Positions 8,109-27,516 are shown, numbered from the stretch's first letter. The stretch: 32,000 nt of DNA from Candidatus Saccharimonadota bacterium (GCA_016699265.1 CP064967.1:840001-872000); one strand, 5' to 3'. Made by a program: numbers and translations. Notes: a model not told the origin generated them from the letters alone.

Positions 8109-10292
8109 CTAGCGACCCGATACTGCCCCTATCTCAAGGAACATATATGGAAATCGCTCAAGAGGCTTCAGACTTGGGGAAGAGACTGGTTCTGTTCCAG
8201 TGGCACCTGTGAGATAGAAGTGAACTCGATGAAATGCCTGCGGTTGTTGTGTTGTGCTGATTGGCAGCTTGGAATTAAGTTCCTGCTGTGGAATCAGGCC
8301 TATGAAAAGTGTTGAGTACCGAACATCTTTTGCACTGTTACCGATCTCGCTCGCTACTCTTTGGGTCTCGAGTTCTGTCAGAGCAAGCTTTTTACCAATC
8401 TGCTTTGAGAAATTTCCGATCTCATCTTTTTTTACAGTCCAACCTAATTTTGGTTTATTAAAAGTAACTGGTTGGTATTCGTAGTAAATATATGGACGAG
8501 AAACGCCGTTCACATTGAGATTTACTCCGTTATTCACATCAACATTCCAGGTACTGTTTTTAACTAATGGGTCTGCGTAAGTAAGTGAGAAGTTTGGACT
8601 TATGGTTATAGACCTTGTGGTTGAGGAATAGACAAAAAGAGTTGGAGAATAACCGGAAATTTGAATCGGACAATTTACAGGCAAGCCTTGATCTAATTTT
8701 ACTGTCAAGTTGGGATCAACTTCCTGCGGTCTATCACCCGTTTGAGTTTTTGCTAACGCTATCCCCTGCTCTATAGTAACGTAAAACTGCGCAACGTCAG
8801 CAGTCTTTGGGATAACGTATAAATCGCCACCGCTTACAAAGTATTGATTTCCTTCTGGGTCTATTTGTACATTCGTAGGCTCAATGTCATTGCTACATGT
8901 TATTGCGGGAGGTAGCGGAGCAGACGTTTCAACAACCTCGGCTACCTGCCCTGGAGTAAGTACTACCGGAGGCTGAGTTGGTAGCGGTGTTGGGGGTGGT
9001 GGAGTTGGTGTCGGCGTAAAGGTACCTAGGTTAATTCCTGGATTTTCATCTTCAGATTGAGCCAGTAATCGTGAGGTAGAAGCTCCGAGCACCTCTTGTT
9101 TTGTAGCAGAGACCGCAGCAAGAACCTTCACTCTATATCCTGAGGCTAGAACACCGCTACCTCTAAATACATAGTAAGGAATGAGTTTTGTCTGGACTGT
9201 GCCTGGCATCTCCTCAAGGTAAGTTAGGATACTCTCAGTCACCTCCACCTGTGAAAGCTTAGCGGTGTCTTTGGGATACAACTTCGCATAGTCAACGACA
9301 CCCTCTCCTGCTGGGATCGTATAGATCCTGTCGTATCGATTCGCCTTCAAACGCGTAACTGCATCGGCATAGGAGATCGTAGGCATTTGTTCGACTCCTT
9401 TAATACGTCGGGCATTAGATGTTATAGAAACTACCTTACCGTCCTTTACTCCGACCGTGACGGTGCTAAAGTCATTGGGTCTTCGCAGACCATCTGTTTT
9501 GTCCGAAGTATTGATTACTCTTTTGTCCTTAACGTTGCCCACCGCTACTCCAATTTTTAGTTTGGAAAAAGGAATAGCCTCTTGAGTATTGAAAAGACCC
9601 AAAAAACTCAGAACCGGAAGTCCACTGGCTTCCCAGCTCCTATGCAGTTCGTAGTATCTAACTCCTGGGTTATTCGTTTTATCAAACTCAGTCGTAATCA
9701 CTAATGTATTTTCGTGAAATAATCTATGTACCAAGCTCTCTACCGCACTTCTTCTATCGGCTTCTTTTTCATCTGCCAAACTGACTCCTTTTGGTGACAG
9801 TAGAATAAATGAACCACTCGGTTTCTGGACATACAACATGTCTGAAGTTTGAGACGTAACAATAAATCGATTCGCATTTTCTTCAATCTTGGGTTGTTGA
9901 TAAAATCCTACCAACATATTATTTAGGTCAGTGAGTGTGAAATTTTCCAGAAAGGAATAAACTCTAGCAGAAGGTTGGGATTTCAGTGCAGTGGCCAAAA
10001 TATTCCATTTCCCAACAGTTACCTGAGGTAAAGGATGTGATTGAGGAGTCGCGGCCCCTACTCCTTTTTTCAGTCCGCCCTTAGTAGTAGAGTTCTTTCC
10101 AGAATTTAGTTGCTCATTTGAGTTTGTTTTTTGATTGGAGAAATAGGCTACGGCAACAACGATGGTCAGGAGAACTCCGCATAAAACACCCGCTAGTATT
10201 AGTAGCTTTTTCTTAGATCCATTCTCATTTTGAAACGGCAAATCGGCAACTTGTCCGCTTGAGGGTACGGCATTTGAATCTATGGCATTCAT
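8109..10292 (-). CDS. Membrane-anchored surface protein, paralogue B (727 aa from ATG 10292)
   Basis: Same architecture as paralogue A, plus an in-frame ~100-aa C-terminal tail. ATG 10292 (MNAIDS...) is preferred over the TTG at 10301, which lies inside the -10 box. Confidence 0.85.
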   Translation of the reverse strand: MNAIDSNAVPSSGQVADLPFQNENGSKKKLLILAGVLCGVLLTIVVAVAYFSNQKTNSNEQLNSGKNSTTKGGLKKGVGAATPQSHPLPQVTVGKWNILATALKSQPSARVYSFLENFTLTDLNNMLVGFYQQPKIEENANRFIVTSQTSDMLYVQKPSGSFILLSPKGVSLADEKEADRRSAVESLVHRLFHENTLVITTEFDKTNNPGVRYYELHRSWEASGLPVLSFLGLFNTQEAIPFSKLKIGVAVGNVKDKRVINTSDKTDGLRRPNDFSTVTVGVKDGKVVSITSNARRIKGVEQMPTISYADAVTRLKANRYDRIYTIPAGEGVVDYAKLYPKDTAKLSQVEVTESILTYLEEMPGTVQTKLIPYYVFRGSGVLASGYRVKVLAAVSATKQEVLGASTSRLLAQSEDENPGINLGTFTPTPTPPPPTPLPTQPPVVLTPGQVAEVVETSAPLPPAITCSNDIEPTNVQIDPEGNQYFVSGGDLYVIPKTADVAQFYVTIEQGIALAKTQTGDRPQEVDPNLTVKLDQGLPVNCPIQISGYSPTLFVYSSTTRSITISPNFSLTYADPLVKNSTWNVDVNNGVNLNVNGVSRPYIYYEYQPVTFNKPKLGWTVKKDEIGNFSKQIGKKLALTELETQRVASEIGNSAKDVRYSTLFIGLIPQQELNSKLPISTTQQPQAFHRVHFYLTGATGTEPVSSPSLKPLERFPYMFLEIGAVSGR
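8122..8513. repeat. Direct repeat block 1, copy B
   Basis: Partner of 5873..6263, at an offset of 2249-2251 nt. Confidence 0.9.
8963..9602. repeat. Direct repeat block 2, copy B
   Basis: Partner of 6736..7375. Confidence 0.85.
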
Positions 10293-20061: not shown

Positions 20062-20634
20062 CTAAACCTTAAGAGCACCTCGAAAACCTCTACTTCCATA
20101 ATAGGAGTCTGCTCCATTATGAAACACGAAGACGTGGTTGTATCTTCGATCAGCAAAAATCGCCCCACCCAGTTTTCTGATCTCTGAAGGAGTTTGTAGC
20201 CAACTGGAGGTCTTTACATCGAACTCTCCCAACTCCTGCAACTCACGGTATTCGTTCTCGGTGAGGAGTCCGATACCCATTGCCCGCGCAAAATCTTCCG
20301 CGCTATCTTTTGGTTTATATTCTTTCCGCTCTTCAAGCGCTTTACGGTCATAACAAAGACTTCGTCGGCCCTTCGGGCTTTCTGCTGAGCAGTCACAGAA
20401 AATATATTCACCCGTATTCTTATCATGACCTACAACATCTGGCTCCCCACCCGTACTCTCCATTTCATTGAGAGACCATAACTTCTCAGGATTCGACTCC
20501 AACCTCTCAAGGACTTTACCCCAGACTACCTCCTCATGCCTCTTCATATTTTTCTCAAATCGAGTTTTCAAACTATTCGAAAAGATTCTCCCGGTCTCTT
20601 CTATACGTAGATCCTTGTTGGAGCTATTACTCAT
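20062..20634 (-). CDS. DUF4256-like protein
   Basis: 190 aa. The segments NPEKLWSLNEMESTGGEPDVVG, CSAESPKGRRSLCYD and RKLGGAIFADRRYNHVFVFHNGADSYY match my recollection of DUF4256 proteins. Confidence 0.65.
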   Translation of the reverse strand: MSNSSNKDLRIEETGRIFSNSLKTRFEKNMKRHEEVVWGKVLERLESNPEKLWSLNEMESTGGEPDVVGHDKNTGEYIFCDCSAESPKGRRSLCYDRKALEERKEYKPKDSAEDFARAMGIGLLTENEYRELQELGEFDVKTSSWLQTPSEIRKLGGAIFADRRYNHVFVFHNGADSYYGSRGFRGALKV

Positions 20635-24039: not shown

Positions 24040-24492
24040 TCATTTAGTTTTCACCACTTGCTTAGCAACCCAAAGAAGATATGGTGCCGAGCCCATCATG
24101 GTGATATGGAATCCATACTCGATATACAGAAGACTTTGCAAGTTCATACCAATATGCATGTGTAGCGAATCATGCATCCACCAATTTCCAAGAATCCAAA
24201 GCAAACATACAAAAGCAGTTCGTGTTTGTTTTAACGTAAGCGAAGATAAAGCTTTTTTTGGAAAATAAAACAATAGTAAAACTAAAGTCAGGGCGAATGT
24301 TACTGACTCAACAATGTTAAGAAGTATGAAAAAAGGCAGCTGTAGATTTGTCGGATTAGGTGCCATGCTATTCGGTCGCCAAAAGAATCCGAGTGGACCA
24401 TGCGGATTCGAGGTAAAAGCAAGAACCGCTATGACTACTCCGACAACAAGCTTCACACTCTTGTTCATATATCGAAGTATACACTTCCTCAT
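24040..24492 (-). CDS. Hypothetical polytopic membrane protein
   Basis: 150 aa, or 142 aa from ATG 24468. Four hydrophobic helices and a His-rich loop (WWMHDSLHMHIG). No family recognised. Confidence 0.55.
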   Translation of the reverse strand: MRKCILRYMNKSVKLVVGVVIAVLAFTSNPHGPLGFFWRPNSMAPNPTNLQLPFFILLNIVESVTFALTLVLLLFYFPKKALSSLTLKQTRTAFVCLLWILGNWWMHDSLHMHIGMNLQSLLYIEYGFHITMMGSAPYLLWVAKQVVKTK

Positions 24493-24503
24493 TAAAACTT
24501 CAA

Positions 24504-24517
24504 TTGCTCCCCCGCGT
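24504..24517. repeat. Distal copy of the tRNA-Asn 3'-end sequence (ttgctcccccgcgt)
   Basis: 14/14 identity with 27060-27073 and 12/12 identity (gctcccccgcgt) with 27443-27454 inside the tRNA gene. It sits exactly in the gap between two genes. Confidence 0.7.
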
Positions 24518-24520
24518 AAA

Positions 24521-24790
24521 TTACCTTTTGTAGATGTATCGCTCCCACATTTTTCTAAAAACTAGGAGTGTGAGCGTTGAGAGTAAAAAACCAACCGTTG
24601 GAACAATCGCATTAATCCACGGGTCAATTCCAACAATGAATTTTAAATAAAGAGCTATCGCAAGGTATGTAAAAACAGAAATGAGTAATTTCCGAGTCCA
24701 GCTTGTTTCCCATGCTTTATCCAGTTCAACCTTACTATTTCTAGCTTCAATTTTTCCTACCCTTTCCTCAAGATTTTTTATCTTATCCAT
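24521..24790 (-). CDS. Small protein with an N-terminal coiled-coil segment and two TM helices
   Basis: 89 aa, MDKIKNLEERVGKIEARNSKVELDKAWE followed by two hydrophobic helices. It is preceded by the conserved promoter motif. Confidence 0.6.
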   Translation of the reverse strand: MDKIKNLEERVGKIEARNSKVELDKAWETSWTRKLLISVFTYLAIALYLKFIVGIDPWINAIVPTVGFLLSTLTLLVFRKMWERYIYKR

Positions 24791-24796
24791 GTAATA

Positions 24797-24814
24797 AGTA
24801 TATCAAAGCTAAAA
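24797..24814 (-). promoter_or_regulatory. Conserved promoter motif TTTTAGCTTTGATATACT, ending 6 nt before the ATG at 24790
   Basis: Minus strand reads tcggaaTTTTAGCTTTGATATACTtattacATG. Confidence 0.5.
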
Positions 24815-25035
24815 TTCCGAAGATTGAAAATGGTGATCATAGTCGAACCAAAACAGTAGAAATGCTCCCCCAGGTTGAAGCATTCAGGAACCACAAAATC
24901 GAATTTAACATCTCGTTAATAGACATAGAGTCTCTTTGCTCATTTTATCATTTGCATACAAATAATCTTTGACCACATAAAAAACTTGTGATAGACACTT
25001 TATGCAAATTCAAAGAATATGTTAAGCTTACCTAT

Positions 25036-25584
25036 ATGAAGGTTGTTATTTCTGCTCATTTCGATTTAGCGCGGCCCATCATGTTCATGAAATTGGATGA
25101 CAAAGGACTTAGTGGGCTTGTTGACAATTTTGCGGGTGTATTTGCTTCATATCAGGCATCCCGACGCACGGGCACTCCTGTATATCTCACTAATTATGAG
25201 GAGCTTGATTTTGATGGAGCTGACGCAGCTGCTAAAACCCTGGATAAAGAGACTCTTGTCATAGTTGTCGACACTATCCTAGAGCAGGATATTCTTGGAA
25301 AGCCCGTATCTATTGCCAATGCATATGATCTTTCACCTGAAATTTGGACTCAGCTAAAGTCAAAATTTAGTGACAAGATTCATTTTAAAGACGGATTTTT
25401 TGAACAAACTGAAGACGAAAGCTGGATCTACGGTCATAAGAATGGCTTAAAAACATTTTACTTTGGAGTGCCTATCCCAGGCACATACTATCATAGTACA
25501 GAAAACCGCGTTTCCCTTAAAACAATTGACGACGCAACAGAAACTTTGATTGAGGTAATTAATTGGTTTTCAAACGTAAAGTAA
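25036..25584 (+). CDS. Hypothetical protein with M42/M28-like metallopeptidase ligand pattern (tentative)
   Basis: From ATG 25036 (MKVVISAHFDL...). The motifs SAHFD, GLVDNFAG, NYEELDFDG, TEDE and YYHSTEN occur in the same order as the H-x-D / D / EE / D-E / H metal ligands of M42/M28 peptidases, but in a much shorter protein. The GTG at 24988 is an alternative start. Confidence 0.4.
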   Translation: MKVVISAHFDLARPIMFMKLDDKGLSGLVDNFAGVFASYQASRRTGTPVYLTNYEELDFDGADAAAKTLDKETLVIVVDTILEQDILGKPVSIANAYDLSPEIWTQLKSKFSDKIHFKDGFFEQTEDESWIYGHKNGLKTFYFGVPIPGTYYHSTENRVSLKTIDDATETLIEVINWFSNVK

Positions 25585-25593
25585 AAAGAATCG

Positions 25594-27004
25594 TCATTGG
25601 TCTGATTGCAAAGCATTAACTTTCACCTCCAAAAGTAGTTCAATTTCCCGAGTTCGTTCCTGACCATCTCCAAGTATCGCATATCCAAATTTACCTCTTC
25701 CAAATTTTGATCTCATTGACTCAGTAAATACTACTCCTGCTTTTTCTGCCTCCATTGGATAAATAATATCTGAAAGCGCTTCCTTCAACTGAGCATAAGA
25801 AATACCATGAAGATTTTGTCTTATAAACTTGTCATTTGTCCTAATTGAAACTTCTTCTTCCCAATTATCTCCATACAAAAGTTTTGCCAAATCAACAACA
25901 TAGCTCATACTTGTTCGTCTTAAGTTAGCCTCGGTGGGTGATATTTGGCCGTCTGTTGCTAATATATAATCCGTATCGTACCAACCTCTATAACCTTCCG
26001 CACTTAATTCTTCTCCAACAGCAGAAGTAAATTTCCTAAGTGTATCAGCTTGTGTTTCATCAAACAAACCTTTTCCAGCAACGCATCCATAAAACCTACT
26101 TCCTCACCATCATGACGAATGACCATCGCGTCAATAGCTTGAACTTCAACCGTACCATCCACAGTAACAATTGCGTCGACGCTAGGATGTGCGCCATGGT
26201 GATTGAAGTCTACATCTATTCTTTCTTCAACTACCACTTTATCATTATGAAAAGACCATTAGCACGGATTTTTCCTCGCATTTCTTCTAACTTTTCTGGC
26301 GTGTCTACTTGCTCTTGTTTGAAAACATTCACACCAATACCAGCTCCACCTGAGTTTGCTTTAAAAACTACACCTCTACCACTTTCAATGAAATAGTCCG
26401 CTCTTGATAATGCGTCATCAACTGTATCACAAACATATCCTTCGGGGATTTTAATATCTAACTCTGGATGCTTAGCTTTAACTCTTTGTAATAAATCTCG
26501 TGAACCTACTTTTGTTTCAAAATATTCCGCAGCCGCAATCCCCTCATCGGTTGGGCTTTCTGGCGTTCTAAAATTTGCACCTCTTGATCGCAGGTTATCC
26601 ACTAAACCTTGAAATTGAGGAGTATACCCAAAAGGCACCACTTGCACATCTTCTGCTCTATCAATCTCATTAACGAGCTCCTGAAAAACACCCTCATCAG
26701 AAACAATATCACTTGAAAGTCCCGCATCGGTTTCATGCGGCACTAATAGTCTAGCATTCTTAAATCCAAAAAGAGTAGAGATGTCAGATATAAATTCAGG
26801 ATCAAGTGCTCTAGGTAATAGTACAATTTTGTCATCACCAAACCACATAAAATCCATATCGGCTTCATCAATATCGGATTCTACGAATTCTAATCTCTGT
26901 GATTCTGGAACAAATCTATCAACAGGAGAGAAAAACTCTCGGTCATTTCCCACAACTATCGATTTTATTGGAGGTCGTGAAGGCCCACGTTCTAAATCTG
27001 GCAT
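25594..27004 (-). pseudogene. ATP-grasp family ligase (pre-ATP-grasp plus ATP-grasp, PGM1-like?) broken into three ORFs by two 1-nt frameshifts
   Basis: ORFs 26231..27004, 26004..26237 and 25594..26067 read on as a single protein if one A is added to the A4 run at 26250-26253 (...RANGLFHNDKVVVEERIDV...) and one to the A4 run at 26091-26094 (...GEEVGFYGCVAGKGLFDETQ...). The protein has a GVVFKANSGGAGIGV loop and a DTDYIL...EANLRRT segment typical of ATP-grasp enzymes. Confidence 0.7.
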
Positions 27005-27059
27005 CGCGCAATGCCAACATACGCTCCTTATTTAGTCAATGTCGTCATCGTTTGGTACT

Positions 27060-27075
27060 TTGCTCCCCCGCGTGG
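27060..27075. repeat. Middle copy of the tRNA-Asn 3'-end sequence (ttgctcccccgcgtgg)
   Basis: 14/14 identity (gctcccccgcgtgg) with 27443-27456 in the tRNA gene. It lies 2 nt from the left inverted repeat of the GIY-YIG element. Confidence 0.8.
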
Positions 27076-27077
27076 TA

Positions 27078-27098
27078 TCCTTCGCTGAAGCTACAGAT
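27078..27098. repeat. Left terminal inverted repeat of the GIY-YIG element
   Basis: See 27076..27440. Confidence 0.6.
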
Positions 27099-27117
27099 AC
27101 CTATCTTAACAGAACAA

Positions 27118-27375
27118 TCATCTTTCTTTAAAGCTCCTCACCAGACGTTTATATGCGAATGCTTTACCTGATCCAGATTTTAAGTACAGTTCAAAATCTT
27201 TCGCTCCTTTTAAATTGGGAAATGCGCAGTACCACACCAACTTCCATGGAATATGAGGCTTGGTTGATAGTGATAAGCCGTCATTATGCATTTTAAATCT
27301 TTCTTTTAAATTTGGGCTGTGCCCGTAGTAAAAGATTTTAGATTTTGAACTGTACAAAATGTATGTATAGTACAT
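27118..27375 (-). CDS. Stand-alone GIY-YIG nuclease-domain protein (85 aa)
   Basis: MYYTYILYSSKSKIFYYGHSPNLKERFKMHN carries the GIY-YIG motifs. It is only distantly related to the copy at 3903..4151. Confidence 0.85.
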   Translation of the reverse strand: MYYTYILYSSKSKIFYYGHSPNLKERFKMHNDGLSLSTKPHIPWKLVWYCAFPNLKGAKDFELYLKSGSGKAFAYKRLVRSFKER

Positions 27376-27419
27376 ATGGCGCCAGCCGTCTGCCGTTTAC
27401 AACTTTAGACGGCTTAGTC

Positions 27420-27440
27420 ATCTGGAGCTTTAGCGAAAGA
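27420..27440. repeat. Right terminal inverted repeat of the GIY-YIG element, abutting the encoded CCA end of tRNA-Asn
   Basis: See 27076..27440. Confidence 0.6.
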
Positions 27441-27516
27441 TGGCTCCCCCGCGTGGACTCGAACCACGAACCTTATTCTTAACAGGAATCTGCTCTGCCA
27501 ATTGAGCTACAGGGGA
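27441..27516 (-). tRNA. tRNA-Asn (anticodon GTT), CCA encoded
   Basis: Minus strand reads TCCCCTG-TA-GCTC-AATTGGCA-GAGC-A-GATTC-CTGTTAA-GAATA-AGGTT-CGTGG-TTCGAGT-CCACG-CGGGGGA-GCCA. It folds as a cloverleaf with a 7-bp acceptor stem, T-loop TTCGAGT and anticodon loop CT-GTT-AA. Confidence 0.9.

Follow-up and report, generated by a model that had tools for sequence, protein, structure and literature searches.

How did three copies of the 3' end of a single tRNA gene come to lie within 3 kb of one another in a bacterium of the Candidatus Saccharimonadota? The question is raised by a stretch of 32,000 nucleotides (nt) from that organism (GCA_016699265.1, CP064967.1:840001-872000), hereafter the window, in which an intact tRNA-Asn gene is followed by a 381-nt unit encoding a small GIY-YIG nuclease domain and then by a 2.5-kb segment with other genes, a copy of the tRNA end standing at the far side of each. 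An initial annotation had taken these copies for att-site duplications of elements integrating into the tRNA 3' end. Our analysis favours, with a probability of about 0.65, two different kinds of insertion as their source: a GIY-YIG element, which would have left the inner copy, and an older segment, which would have left the outer one.

The tRNA-Asn end and the GIY-YIG unit behind it

The features on which the argument turns, read in the direction of the tRNA, are the following (aa, amino acids; ORF, open reading frame; DR, direct repeat).

27441-27516, minus strand: intact tRNA-Asn (GTT), the only tRNA of the window (ARAGORN; Rfam RF00005, 59.3 bits)
27443-27456, minus strand: DR1, CCACGCGGGGGAGC, tRNA positions 61-74; same repeat coordinates at homologous loci
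27419-27442, minus strand: left end (LE), CATCTTTCGCTAAAGCTCCAGATG, a 24-nt imperfect palindrome or hairpin, paired with the right end as terminal inverted repeat
27385-27413, minus strand: extra stem-loop GCCGTCT...AGACGGC between left end and start codon, lineage-specific
27118-27375, minus strand: 85-aa GIY-YIG ORF, a minimal Slx1/UPF0213-type nuclease domain (Pfam PF01541, E 5.5e-15)
27119-27137, minus strand: inner copy of the right-end repeat, 89% complementary to 27424-27442, overlapping the last codons of the ORF (..RSFKER*)
27074-27101, minus strand: right end (RE), a 28-nt hairpin, GGTATCTGTAGCTTCAGCGAAGGATACC, inverted repeat of the left end (covariance model 35.7 bits, E 1e-7)
27060-27075, minus strand: DR2, CCACGCGGGGGAGC plus AA, second copy of tRNA positions 61-74 (exact sequence match)
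24504-24517, minus strand: distal copy, ACGCGGGGGAGCAA, tRNA positions 63-74 plus AA, abutting the promoter-like site of a 150-aa gene

The 12-mer GCTCCCCCGCGT has three exact matches in the window, all on the plus strand, at 24506-24517, 27062-27073 and 27443-27454. Only about 0.05 matches would be expected even with one mismatch allowed, and three were reached in none of 100 dinucleotide shuffles, which rules out a chance origin. Read in the tRNA sense, the copy within the gene is CCACGCGGGGGAGC-CA, comprising the T-stem 3' strand (61-65), the acceptor 3' strand (66-72), G73 and C74, followed by CA; CCACGCGGGGGAGC-AA makes up the middle copy and ACGCGGGGGAGC-AA the distal one. The distal and middle copies thus have CAA (ttg on the plus strand) as opposed to CCA in the tRNA, and all three copies lie between ORFs. 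The initial annotation was accurate on these points, as exact matches confirmed: the copies, their coordinates, the shared ttg prefix, the intergenic positions and the improbability of chance all stand. A fourth, 80%-identical copy at 24861-24875 was dismissed as a tRNA relic, since it falls in a terminator-like hairpin (AATGCT..AGCATT with a T-rich tail, minus strand, 24860-24885) and a similar motif, CTCCCC(C)AGGT, stands upstream of the orthologous 181-aa gene in contig L123, far from any tRNA; it is probably unrelated to the tRNA end.

The inner unit extends over 381 nt from the start of DR1 to the start of DR2 and carries a 14-nt direct repeat of tRNA positions 61-74. Its order in the tRNA sense is tRNA/DR1, left end, extra stem-loop, 85-aa ORF, inner end repeat, right end and DR2. 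The left end forms inverted repeats with both 27077-27098 and 27119-27137 and is matched by the covariance model at 27421-27440 (18.4 bits). Its first two bases complete the encoded CCA of tRNA-Asn, and the final CC of the right end are the first two bases of DR2. The AA that follows DR2 is taken to be the original tRNA trailer, and the duplication comprises 14 nt, or possibly 16 with one mismatch. The ORF, whose Pfam match bears out the earlier naming of 27076-27440 as a GIY-YIG element, is co-oriented with the tRNA and lies 67 nt behind it; the tRNA-Asn gene probably supplies its promoter, and expression presumably occurs by read-through. Terminal inverted repeats, a direct repeat and this ORF make up the whole unit: it contains no recombinase and no member of a known transposase class (DDE, HUH, serine, tyrosine or Cas1), the GIY-YIG gene being its only ORF. 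The extra stem-loop at 27385-27413 was considered as a terminator and excluded, there being no T-run and no terminator-like site reported there. In Rfam, the window matched the tRNA family only and no other RNA family.

A family of tRNA-associated units in Patescibacteria

The GIY-YIG protein has more than 460 relatives, counted as protein clusters, the closest of which share 65-85% identity with it and are labelled Paceibacteria, Moranbacteria, Woesebacteria, Microgenomates, Yanofskybacteria and others. A 100% match comes from a metagenome-assembled genome (MAG) of Candidatus Paceibacteria, and many matches lie on contigs of about 1 kb. The locus set analysed below consists of the best 80 of 420 confirmed loci from a one-genome-per-species scan, and the percentages describe this subfamily only. 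A same-strand tRNA precedes the ATG at 58 of the 80 loci, its end lying 25-260 nt (median ~35) away, and the tRNA types include Asn, Gln (CTG, TTG), Ser (CGA, GCT, GGA), Gly (TCC, CCC, GCC), Met, Leu, Tyr and Cys. The left end at the other 22 is preceded by a partial tRNA, by 4-10 nt left over from a tRNA end after an inserted island, by a contig end or by masked sequence, and at these loci too a tRNA 3' end still follows the right end.

An exact repeat of the cognate tRNA end follows within ~100 nt of the stop codon, with a length of at least 13 nt in 39 of 57 testable loci and a mode of 14 nt; in mismatched-locus controls the mean repeat was 6.0 nt, and at least 13 nt was reached in 1 of 435 pairs. 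Where the repeat measures at least 11 nt (44 loci), it starts at position 61, directly after the 7-nt T-loop, in 33 cases and one base later in 7 more, and it usually ends at C74. Because the tRNA coordinates of the duplication are fixed across the family, a recombinase with a fixed att core cannot be its source. Confidence in the architecture of the GIY-YIG units and in their family-wide pattern is high. Elements of this kind, specific for the tRNA 3' end and with an Slx1-like GIY-YIG nuclease as their only product, form a family that is apparently undescribed: a full-text literature search, with subscription journals outside its scope, found no published description of such units, phage and plasmid collections gave no tblastn match to the unit, and no PHROG or NCBIfam family corresponds to it. 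Other small GIY-YIG subfamilies occur near tRNA genes or in the same neighbourhoods in contigs L063 (2124-2399), L116 (~9310-9400) and L124 (7550-7825); among these cases, one ORF ends inside the 5' end of a tRNA-Gly, and one GIY-YIG-like ORF begins right after an unrelated tRNA-Asn. The association with tRNA genes may thus be wider than the present subfamily.

The ends of the units are conserved across phyla. The left end, found in 76 loci, has the consensus (N)ATC(T/C)TTCGC(T/C)AA(A/G)GCT(A/T)C(A/G)GA.., and that of the right end is GGT(R)T(T)CCG(W)AG-[variable stem-loop]-CG(W)AGGA(Y)A, then CC. RNAalifold, applied to 43 right ends, gave 9 pairs; compensatory double changes occur in 6 of these, and hardly any pair is broken. 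In the inner stem both sequence and length vary freely (GCTTTAGC, GTTTTAAC, GCCATGGC, GCCCTC..GAGGGC), and C61 and C62 of DR2 take part in the outermost pairs. The left stem extends into the tRNA end (N73-C74) and covaries with it, as in GC..GC, AC..GT (A73 tRNAs), AACCA..TGGTT and AGCCA..TGGCT. The stems are 95-96% Watson-Crick, and the sense strand has 10 G-T pairs against 21 A-C; the lack of a G-T excess favours pairing at the level of DNA, and an RNA-level role of the hairpins is not favoured. When the whole window was scanned with the right-end covariance model, the right end (35.7 bits) and the left end (18.4 bits) were the only accepted matches; a match at 20247-20277 lies inside an ORF and was taken as chance. 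In some loci, short tandem arrays part the left end from the start codon, with four copies of the left end in L033 (2383-2500) and 27-30-nt repeats in L097 (~2350-2500) and L089 (~2370-2460).

In the PDB, a profile of 26 homologs matched the UPF0213 protein BH0048 (1zg2, E 1e-7), EF2693 and then SLX1. The AlphaFold (AF2) model of the 85-aa protein is a single domain (pLDDT 91.9), for which Foldseek returned Slx1 structures (TMq 0.62-0.72, probability 1.0); the match to I-TevI was weak (E ~1.3). Across the 26 sequences 27 residues are invariant, including Tyr, Tyr-x-Gly, Arg, His and Glu; no C-terminal Asn is conserved. By sequence and by modelled fold, the protein is Slx1/UPF0213-like and not I-TevI-like. 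Slx1 cuts branched and stem-loop DNA, and such a specificity would fit the hairpin ends. The C-terminal tail SVALAKD of the relatives is the translation of the inner end repeat, and an inverted copy resembling the left end stands near codon 80 in 18 of 44 loci. The 2006 superfamily survey, from which the defining conserved residues of Slx1/UPF0213 were taken, treated bare prokaryotic Slx1-like domains as vertically inherited, derived the selfish GIY-YIG enzymes from a UvrC-like branch, and noted the fusion of a standalone Slx1-like domain to a tRNA methyltransferase (PMC1564403).

There is good support for the view that the GIY-YIG units are or were mobile. Protein pairs with 80-85% identity stand behind Ser/Gln, Gln/Tyr or Asn/Ser tRNAs, each with the cognate repeat; two Shapirobacteria that have a Ser/Arg/Ser tRNA cluster in common carry the element behind different members of the cluster; and one MAG holds two copies (L084/L090) that are 62% identical. 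In L135 (500-1320), two GIY-YIG elements of different subfamilies lie in tandem, with a tRNA-Gln-like 3' end after each of them, the outer repeat being the more diverged. The first of these elements recurs in L140 (150-930), tail to tail with a Gly-type element, and the two arrangements point to recombination between elements. At some tRNA-Gly loci, mismatched repeats fit other Gly tRNAs, as is expected after recombination between copies. A shortened second element directly follows DR2 in L099, and in L053, L063 and L066 a third repeat, preceded by another right-end hairpin, is found around unrelated genes.

Two further sites deserve a separate mention. In L053 (2775-3790), a 52-nt block made up of right-end hairpin and tRNA repeat is doubled around a 246-aa gene of the opposite strand, and the element end seems to have served there as an insertion or recombination site. 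In L012 (5440-5560), about 100 nt past the tRNA, there is a further partial tRNA copy, GAGTCCACGCGGGGAGC, whose bracketing sequences loosely resemble the left and right ends; the covariance model detects no element ends in them, and the site may be a miniature ORF-less derivative.

The outer copy at an integration hotspot

The sister-strain contigs compared (L001-L021 and L125-L134) belong to the same species as the window, and in them the tRNA-Asn gene is proven to be a live integration hotspot. Five junction types occur between the tRNA and the left end of the GIY-YIG element: one direct and four occupied by islands, each of which keeps 6-10 nt of the tRNA end. Three of these islands hold, respectively, a second Cu/cation-efflux operon, an MmeI-type restriction system and a tyrosine integrase, and there is a fourth; in other contigs, the tRNA is directly adjoined by yet another island, which carries a large serine recombinase along with restriction-modification genes. 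Recombinase genes are present in the islands of L001/L002 and L016, and one strain has five copies of the tRNA end within 3.5 kb.

The second insertion of the window, which ends at the distal copy, comprises the following features.

24518-27059, no strand assigned: outer segment of 2.5 kb, with the ATP-grasp, 182/198-aa and 89-aa genes
25594-27004, minus strand: ATP-grasp gene, with two 1-nt deletions at ~26094 and ~26253
25036/24988-25584, plus strand: 182/198-aa gene, an ORF in the outer segment
24521-24790, minus strand: 89-aa membrane-protein gene, its stop 3 nt before the distal copy

The distal copy is identical to DR2 plus AA over 14 of 14 nt, whereas the CCA version in the tRNA differs. 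In L123, from a species with an 84% ortholog, the ATP-grasp gene and a 181-aa gene are neighbours of ychF, a long way from any tRNA; L026 has the tRNA-Asn, the GIY-YIG element and a 42% homolog of the flanking 150-aa gene, and the ATP-grasp module is absent. GC content at third codon positions (GC3) is 0.23-0.24 in the ATP-grasp gene as compared with 0.33-0.43 in most genes of the window, which is weak evidence; the composition check suggested earlier thus singled out this gene and nothing else in the outer segment. The ATP-grasp pair elsewhere in L123, the absence of the module from L026 and the low GC3 are consistent with an acquired segment. Serial integration is supported, at the level of sequence comparison, by the 14-nt identity including AA, by the hotspot behaviour of the tRNA, by the occurrence of the ATP-grasp pair at a non-tRNA locus and by the low GC3, and we lean towards reading the outer copy as the scar of an older insertion of a different kind.

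The initial annotation had described the outer segment as a possible decayed island with a fragmented ATP-grasp gene and no integrase. The last point holds, as 24518-27440 contains no recombinase ORF or domain. The fragmentation does not: the gene is complete (470 aa) in every related contig that holds the whole of it, including those of the species, and over 3.3 kb the window differs from L133 only by two 1-nt deletions, both in T5 runs. The split is probably a homopolymer sequencing error, or else a very recent frameshift, and as a probable sequencing error it is no evidence of decay. A decayed island is still a plausible reading of the segment; no empty site was found for it, and it is present throughout the ~30 contigs of the species, with the ATP-grasp gene intact there.

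On the far side of the distal copy, 24476-24503 directly holds a promoter-like site, TTGAAG-16-TATACT, of the 150-aa membrane-protein gene, and in L026 a G-rich motif, AGAGGGGGATC, occupies the equivalent place upstream of the homolog of that gene. In a related genus (L117/L118, 1900-7450), the 150-aa homolog comes directly after a copper-resistance operon (CsoR, cupredoxin, P-type ATPase, DsbD-like, HMA) and no tRNA intervenes; the window has these copper-operon and 150-aa blocks parted by TspO, tRNA-Asn, the GIY-YIG element and the 2.5-kb segment.

Insertion history, rival explanations and known systems

The anatomy, the family-wide pattern, the covariation and the hotspot behaviour are established by the comparisons above; the identity of the cutting enzyme, the position of the nicks and the arrival of the outer segment we infer as follows. 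The tRNA gene would first have ended in ...GAGC-AA. A segment of ~2.5 kb would then have inserted site-specifically, with ACGCGGGGGAGCAA as the crossover region, leaving the 14-mer at the far junction, by means of a recombinase that has since been lost or that acted in trans. The GIY-YIG element would have settled next to the tRNA later, its first bases CA making the encoded CCA, as in other Asn-type elements, and newer islands of the sister strains would keep landing between the tRNA and this element. The corresponding empty junctions are predicted to read ...GAGTCCACGCGGGGGAGC joined to AAAGTACCAAACG (free of the GIY-YIG element) or to AATTGAAGTTTTAATG (free of the outer segment).

For the insertion of the GIY-YIG element itself, a structure-specific nuclease might recognise hairpin or cruciform DNA at the element ends as well as the T-arm/acceptor region of the tRNA gene. 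It would nick one strand at 60/61 and the opposite one 14 nt away at 74/75, two sites that border the T-arm/acceptor inverted repeat; the 3' ends of the element would fold back and be aligned on the target overhangs by at least 2 flank-complementary bases, and host ligation and gap filling would then secure the element, with positions 61-74 duplicated. An intact tRNA would be regenerated and the insertion would be harmless, while a promoter-less ORF would gain read-through transcription. That the nuclease itself drives insertion by such a 14-nt staggered cut is a tentative proposal. Equally tentative is the broader suggestion of a new class of autonomous prokaryotic transposable element, with a bare Slx1-type GIY-YIG nuclease as its sole protein, inserting between tRNA bases 74 and 75; in such an element, the hairpin-end bases complementary to both ends of the 14-nt target could serve as a guide or splint, and the element would ride the tRNA promoter.

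Several observations weigh against this picture. We know of no GIY-YIG enzyme for which transposition has been established, and the 85-aa domain has no obvious sequence-reading module. The hairpins of the window are marginally stable as single-stranded DNA (z -0.03 and -1.7), and the window's own left stem stops before reaching the tRNA; support for the predicted end structure is comparative, not thermodynamic. The nearest protein neighbour belongs to the same tRNA type in 26 of 44 loci, with ~10 expected, so that much of the distribution could be vertical or reflect homing into the same tRNA, and the figures from the best 80 of 420 loci cover one subfamily only. As for the outer insertion, its genes are conserved and apparently functional, it has no recombinase, and the covariance model recognises no element ends beside 24504-24517, nor any decayed ones beside the fourth copy. 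In the ~30 contigs of the species the outer segment is fixed without exception, and neither the GIY-YIG element nor the two distal copies differ between any of them. Empty sites, proposed earlier as a check in relatives and metagenomes, were sought and found for neither insertion: scanning metagenome contigs for the predicted junctions yielded 16 unrelated tRNA-Asn genes, and look-ups of the flanking TspO, GIY-YIG, ATP-grasp and 150-aa proteins led only to filled sites or non-syntenic relatives. Presence/absence polymorphism was accordingly not encountered, both inserts being present in all contigs of the species and the more distant relatives being non-syntenic.

The alternatives account for parts of this evidence. 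If all three copies were attL/attR cores of integrase-driven elements, the GIY-YIG unit would be a tiny island remnant; the classical geometry of intact tRNA, insert and partial 3' copy is what one would then see, and tyrosine- or serine-recombinase islands do sit at the same tRNA in sister strains. Yet those integrase islands leave only 6-10 nt, there is no recombinase anywhere in 24518-27440, the inner unit has conserved inverted-repeat hairpin ends, and a fixed attP core could not give repeats of constant coordinates and a modal 14 nt that match the local tRNA at seven or more tRNA types, which together make this explanation very improbable. The att-site duplications of the initial annotation are accordingly retained in part. 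The copies do derive from the tRNA through insertions at its 3' end, and serially so; an integrase att duplication does not account for the inner pair, which has the same 61-74 coordinates at many tRNA species and flanks a recurrent hairpin-ended unit of ~0.35 kb. The outer copy might in turn be ascribed to the GIY-type mechanism, as a remnant of an older element of the same kind whose interior was replaced by the ATP-grasp segment. The tandem elements of L135, each followed by a tRNA-Gln-like end, the third repeats with a right-end hairpin in L053, L063 and L066 and the shortened second element of L099 are suitable precedents, and the stop of the 89-aa gene 3 nt before the distal copy is of a kind often seen in GIY-YIG ORFs. 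We give little credence to this idea, as the covariance model finds no ends beside 24504-24517, the 61-74 repeat is incomplete in the distal copy, where its initial two bases (CC) are missing, and there is no GIY-YIG remnant within the outer segment.

Another alternative would be to regard the GIY-YIG gene as non-mobile, that is, as a domesticated and vertically inherited companion of the tRNA (for example, a co-transcribed DNA- or RNA-processing factor), with the hairpins and the second tRNA-end copy as selected cis-acting signals for processing, termination or regulation. The gene is indeed fixed and identical in all sampled strains, always co-oriented with and close to a tRNA, and its protein is strongly constrained; the left hairpin pairs and covaries with the tRNA end, and the protein clusters are in part tRNA-type specific. 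Standalone Slx1-like domains have also been regarded as non-selfish, and one is fused to a tRNA methyltransferase (PMC1564403). On the other hand, near-identical proteins stand behind different tRNA species; tandem, shortened, tail-to-tail and recombined copies occur; the outer repeats decay with age; the stems have no RNA-type G-U bias; DR2 lacks the 5' partner strands that tRNA mimicry would need; and many matches lie on contigs of ~1 kb, as is usual for repeats that break assemblies. We therefore consider a purely domesticated gene unlikely and return to a GIY-YIG element and an older, different segment as the two insertions at this tRNA.

Should the proposal for the GIY-YIG unit prove true, it would be the first GIY-YIG-driven transposon-like element in bacteria and the first selfish Slx1 branch, and a unit mobilised by an Slx1-like nuclease would add a new enzyme class to the transposases. 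The function of UPF0213/COG2827, the minimal GIY-YIG proteins of bacteria, is largely obscure, and in that case they too would acquire a testable role; the fixed 61-74 duplication and the flank-complementary hairpins lead to concrete predictions of cleavage sites. The very small genomes of Patescibacteria nevertheless carry a widespread selfish unit on essential tRNA genes, leaving the tRNAs unbroken. The units are unannotated; their extra tRNA-end copies can mislead island-finding software, and they mark points of rearrangement and assembly breaks.

Among known systems, the Slx1/UPF0213 proteins (COG2827, YhbQ, BH0048) are the closest in sequence and fold, but they are regarded as housekeeping or vertically inherited (PMC1564403), with no described repeat-flanked unit at tRNA genes. 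The Seg proteins of phage T4 are, according to one report, encoded by small selfish GIY-YIG ORFs in intergenic positions beside tRNA genes, as is SegB in a tRNA cluster (PMC2330249). Like the present ORF, those of the Seg/I-TevI group are small, free-standing and near tRNA genes; they differ in their added DNA-binding domains, their UvrC-like ancestry and their lack of terminal inverted repeats and target duplication, whereas the present protein is a bare Slx1-like domain in a unit that has both. Penelope-like elements likewise have a GIY-YIG nuclease that serves insertion with target duplications, and Ty3 and the Dictyostelium TRE elements likewise use tRNA genes as a safe haven, but all of these are eukaryotic and depend on reverse transcriptase, which the present unit does not encode. 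Elements of the IS200/IS605 group are very small, with hairpin-forming ends, flanking target bases that pair inside the element and strict specificity for target and orientation. They have a Y1 HUH transposase, with or without TnpB, do not duplicate their target and do not target tRNA genes; the present unit, in contrast, has no HUH domain and does produce a duplication. The integrative elements and islands that target tRNA genes by means of tyrosine or large serine recombinases resemble it in inserting at the tRNA 3' end, regenerating the tRNA, leaving a direct repeat at the far junction and growing into arrays by tandem accretion, and real examples occupy the same tRNA in sister strains. Unlike them, the present element measures 0.38 kb, lacks a recombinase, has hairpin-forming terminal inverted repeats and is flanked by a repeat at the fixed coordinates 61-74, whatever the tRNA sequence. 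With insertion sequences and DNA transposons, finally, it has in common terminal inverted repeats and a duplication of characteristic length (mode 14 nt).

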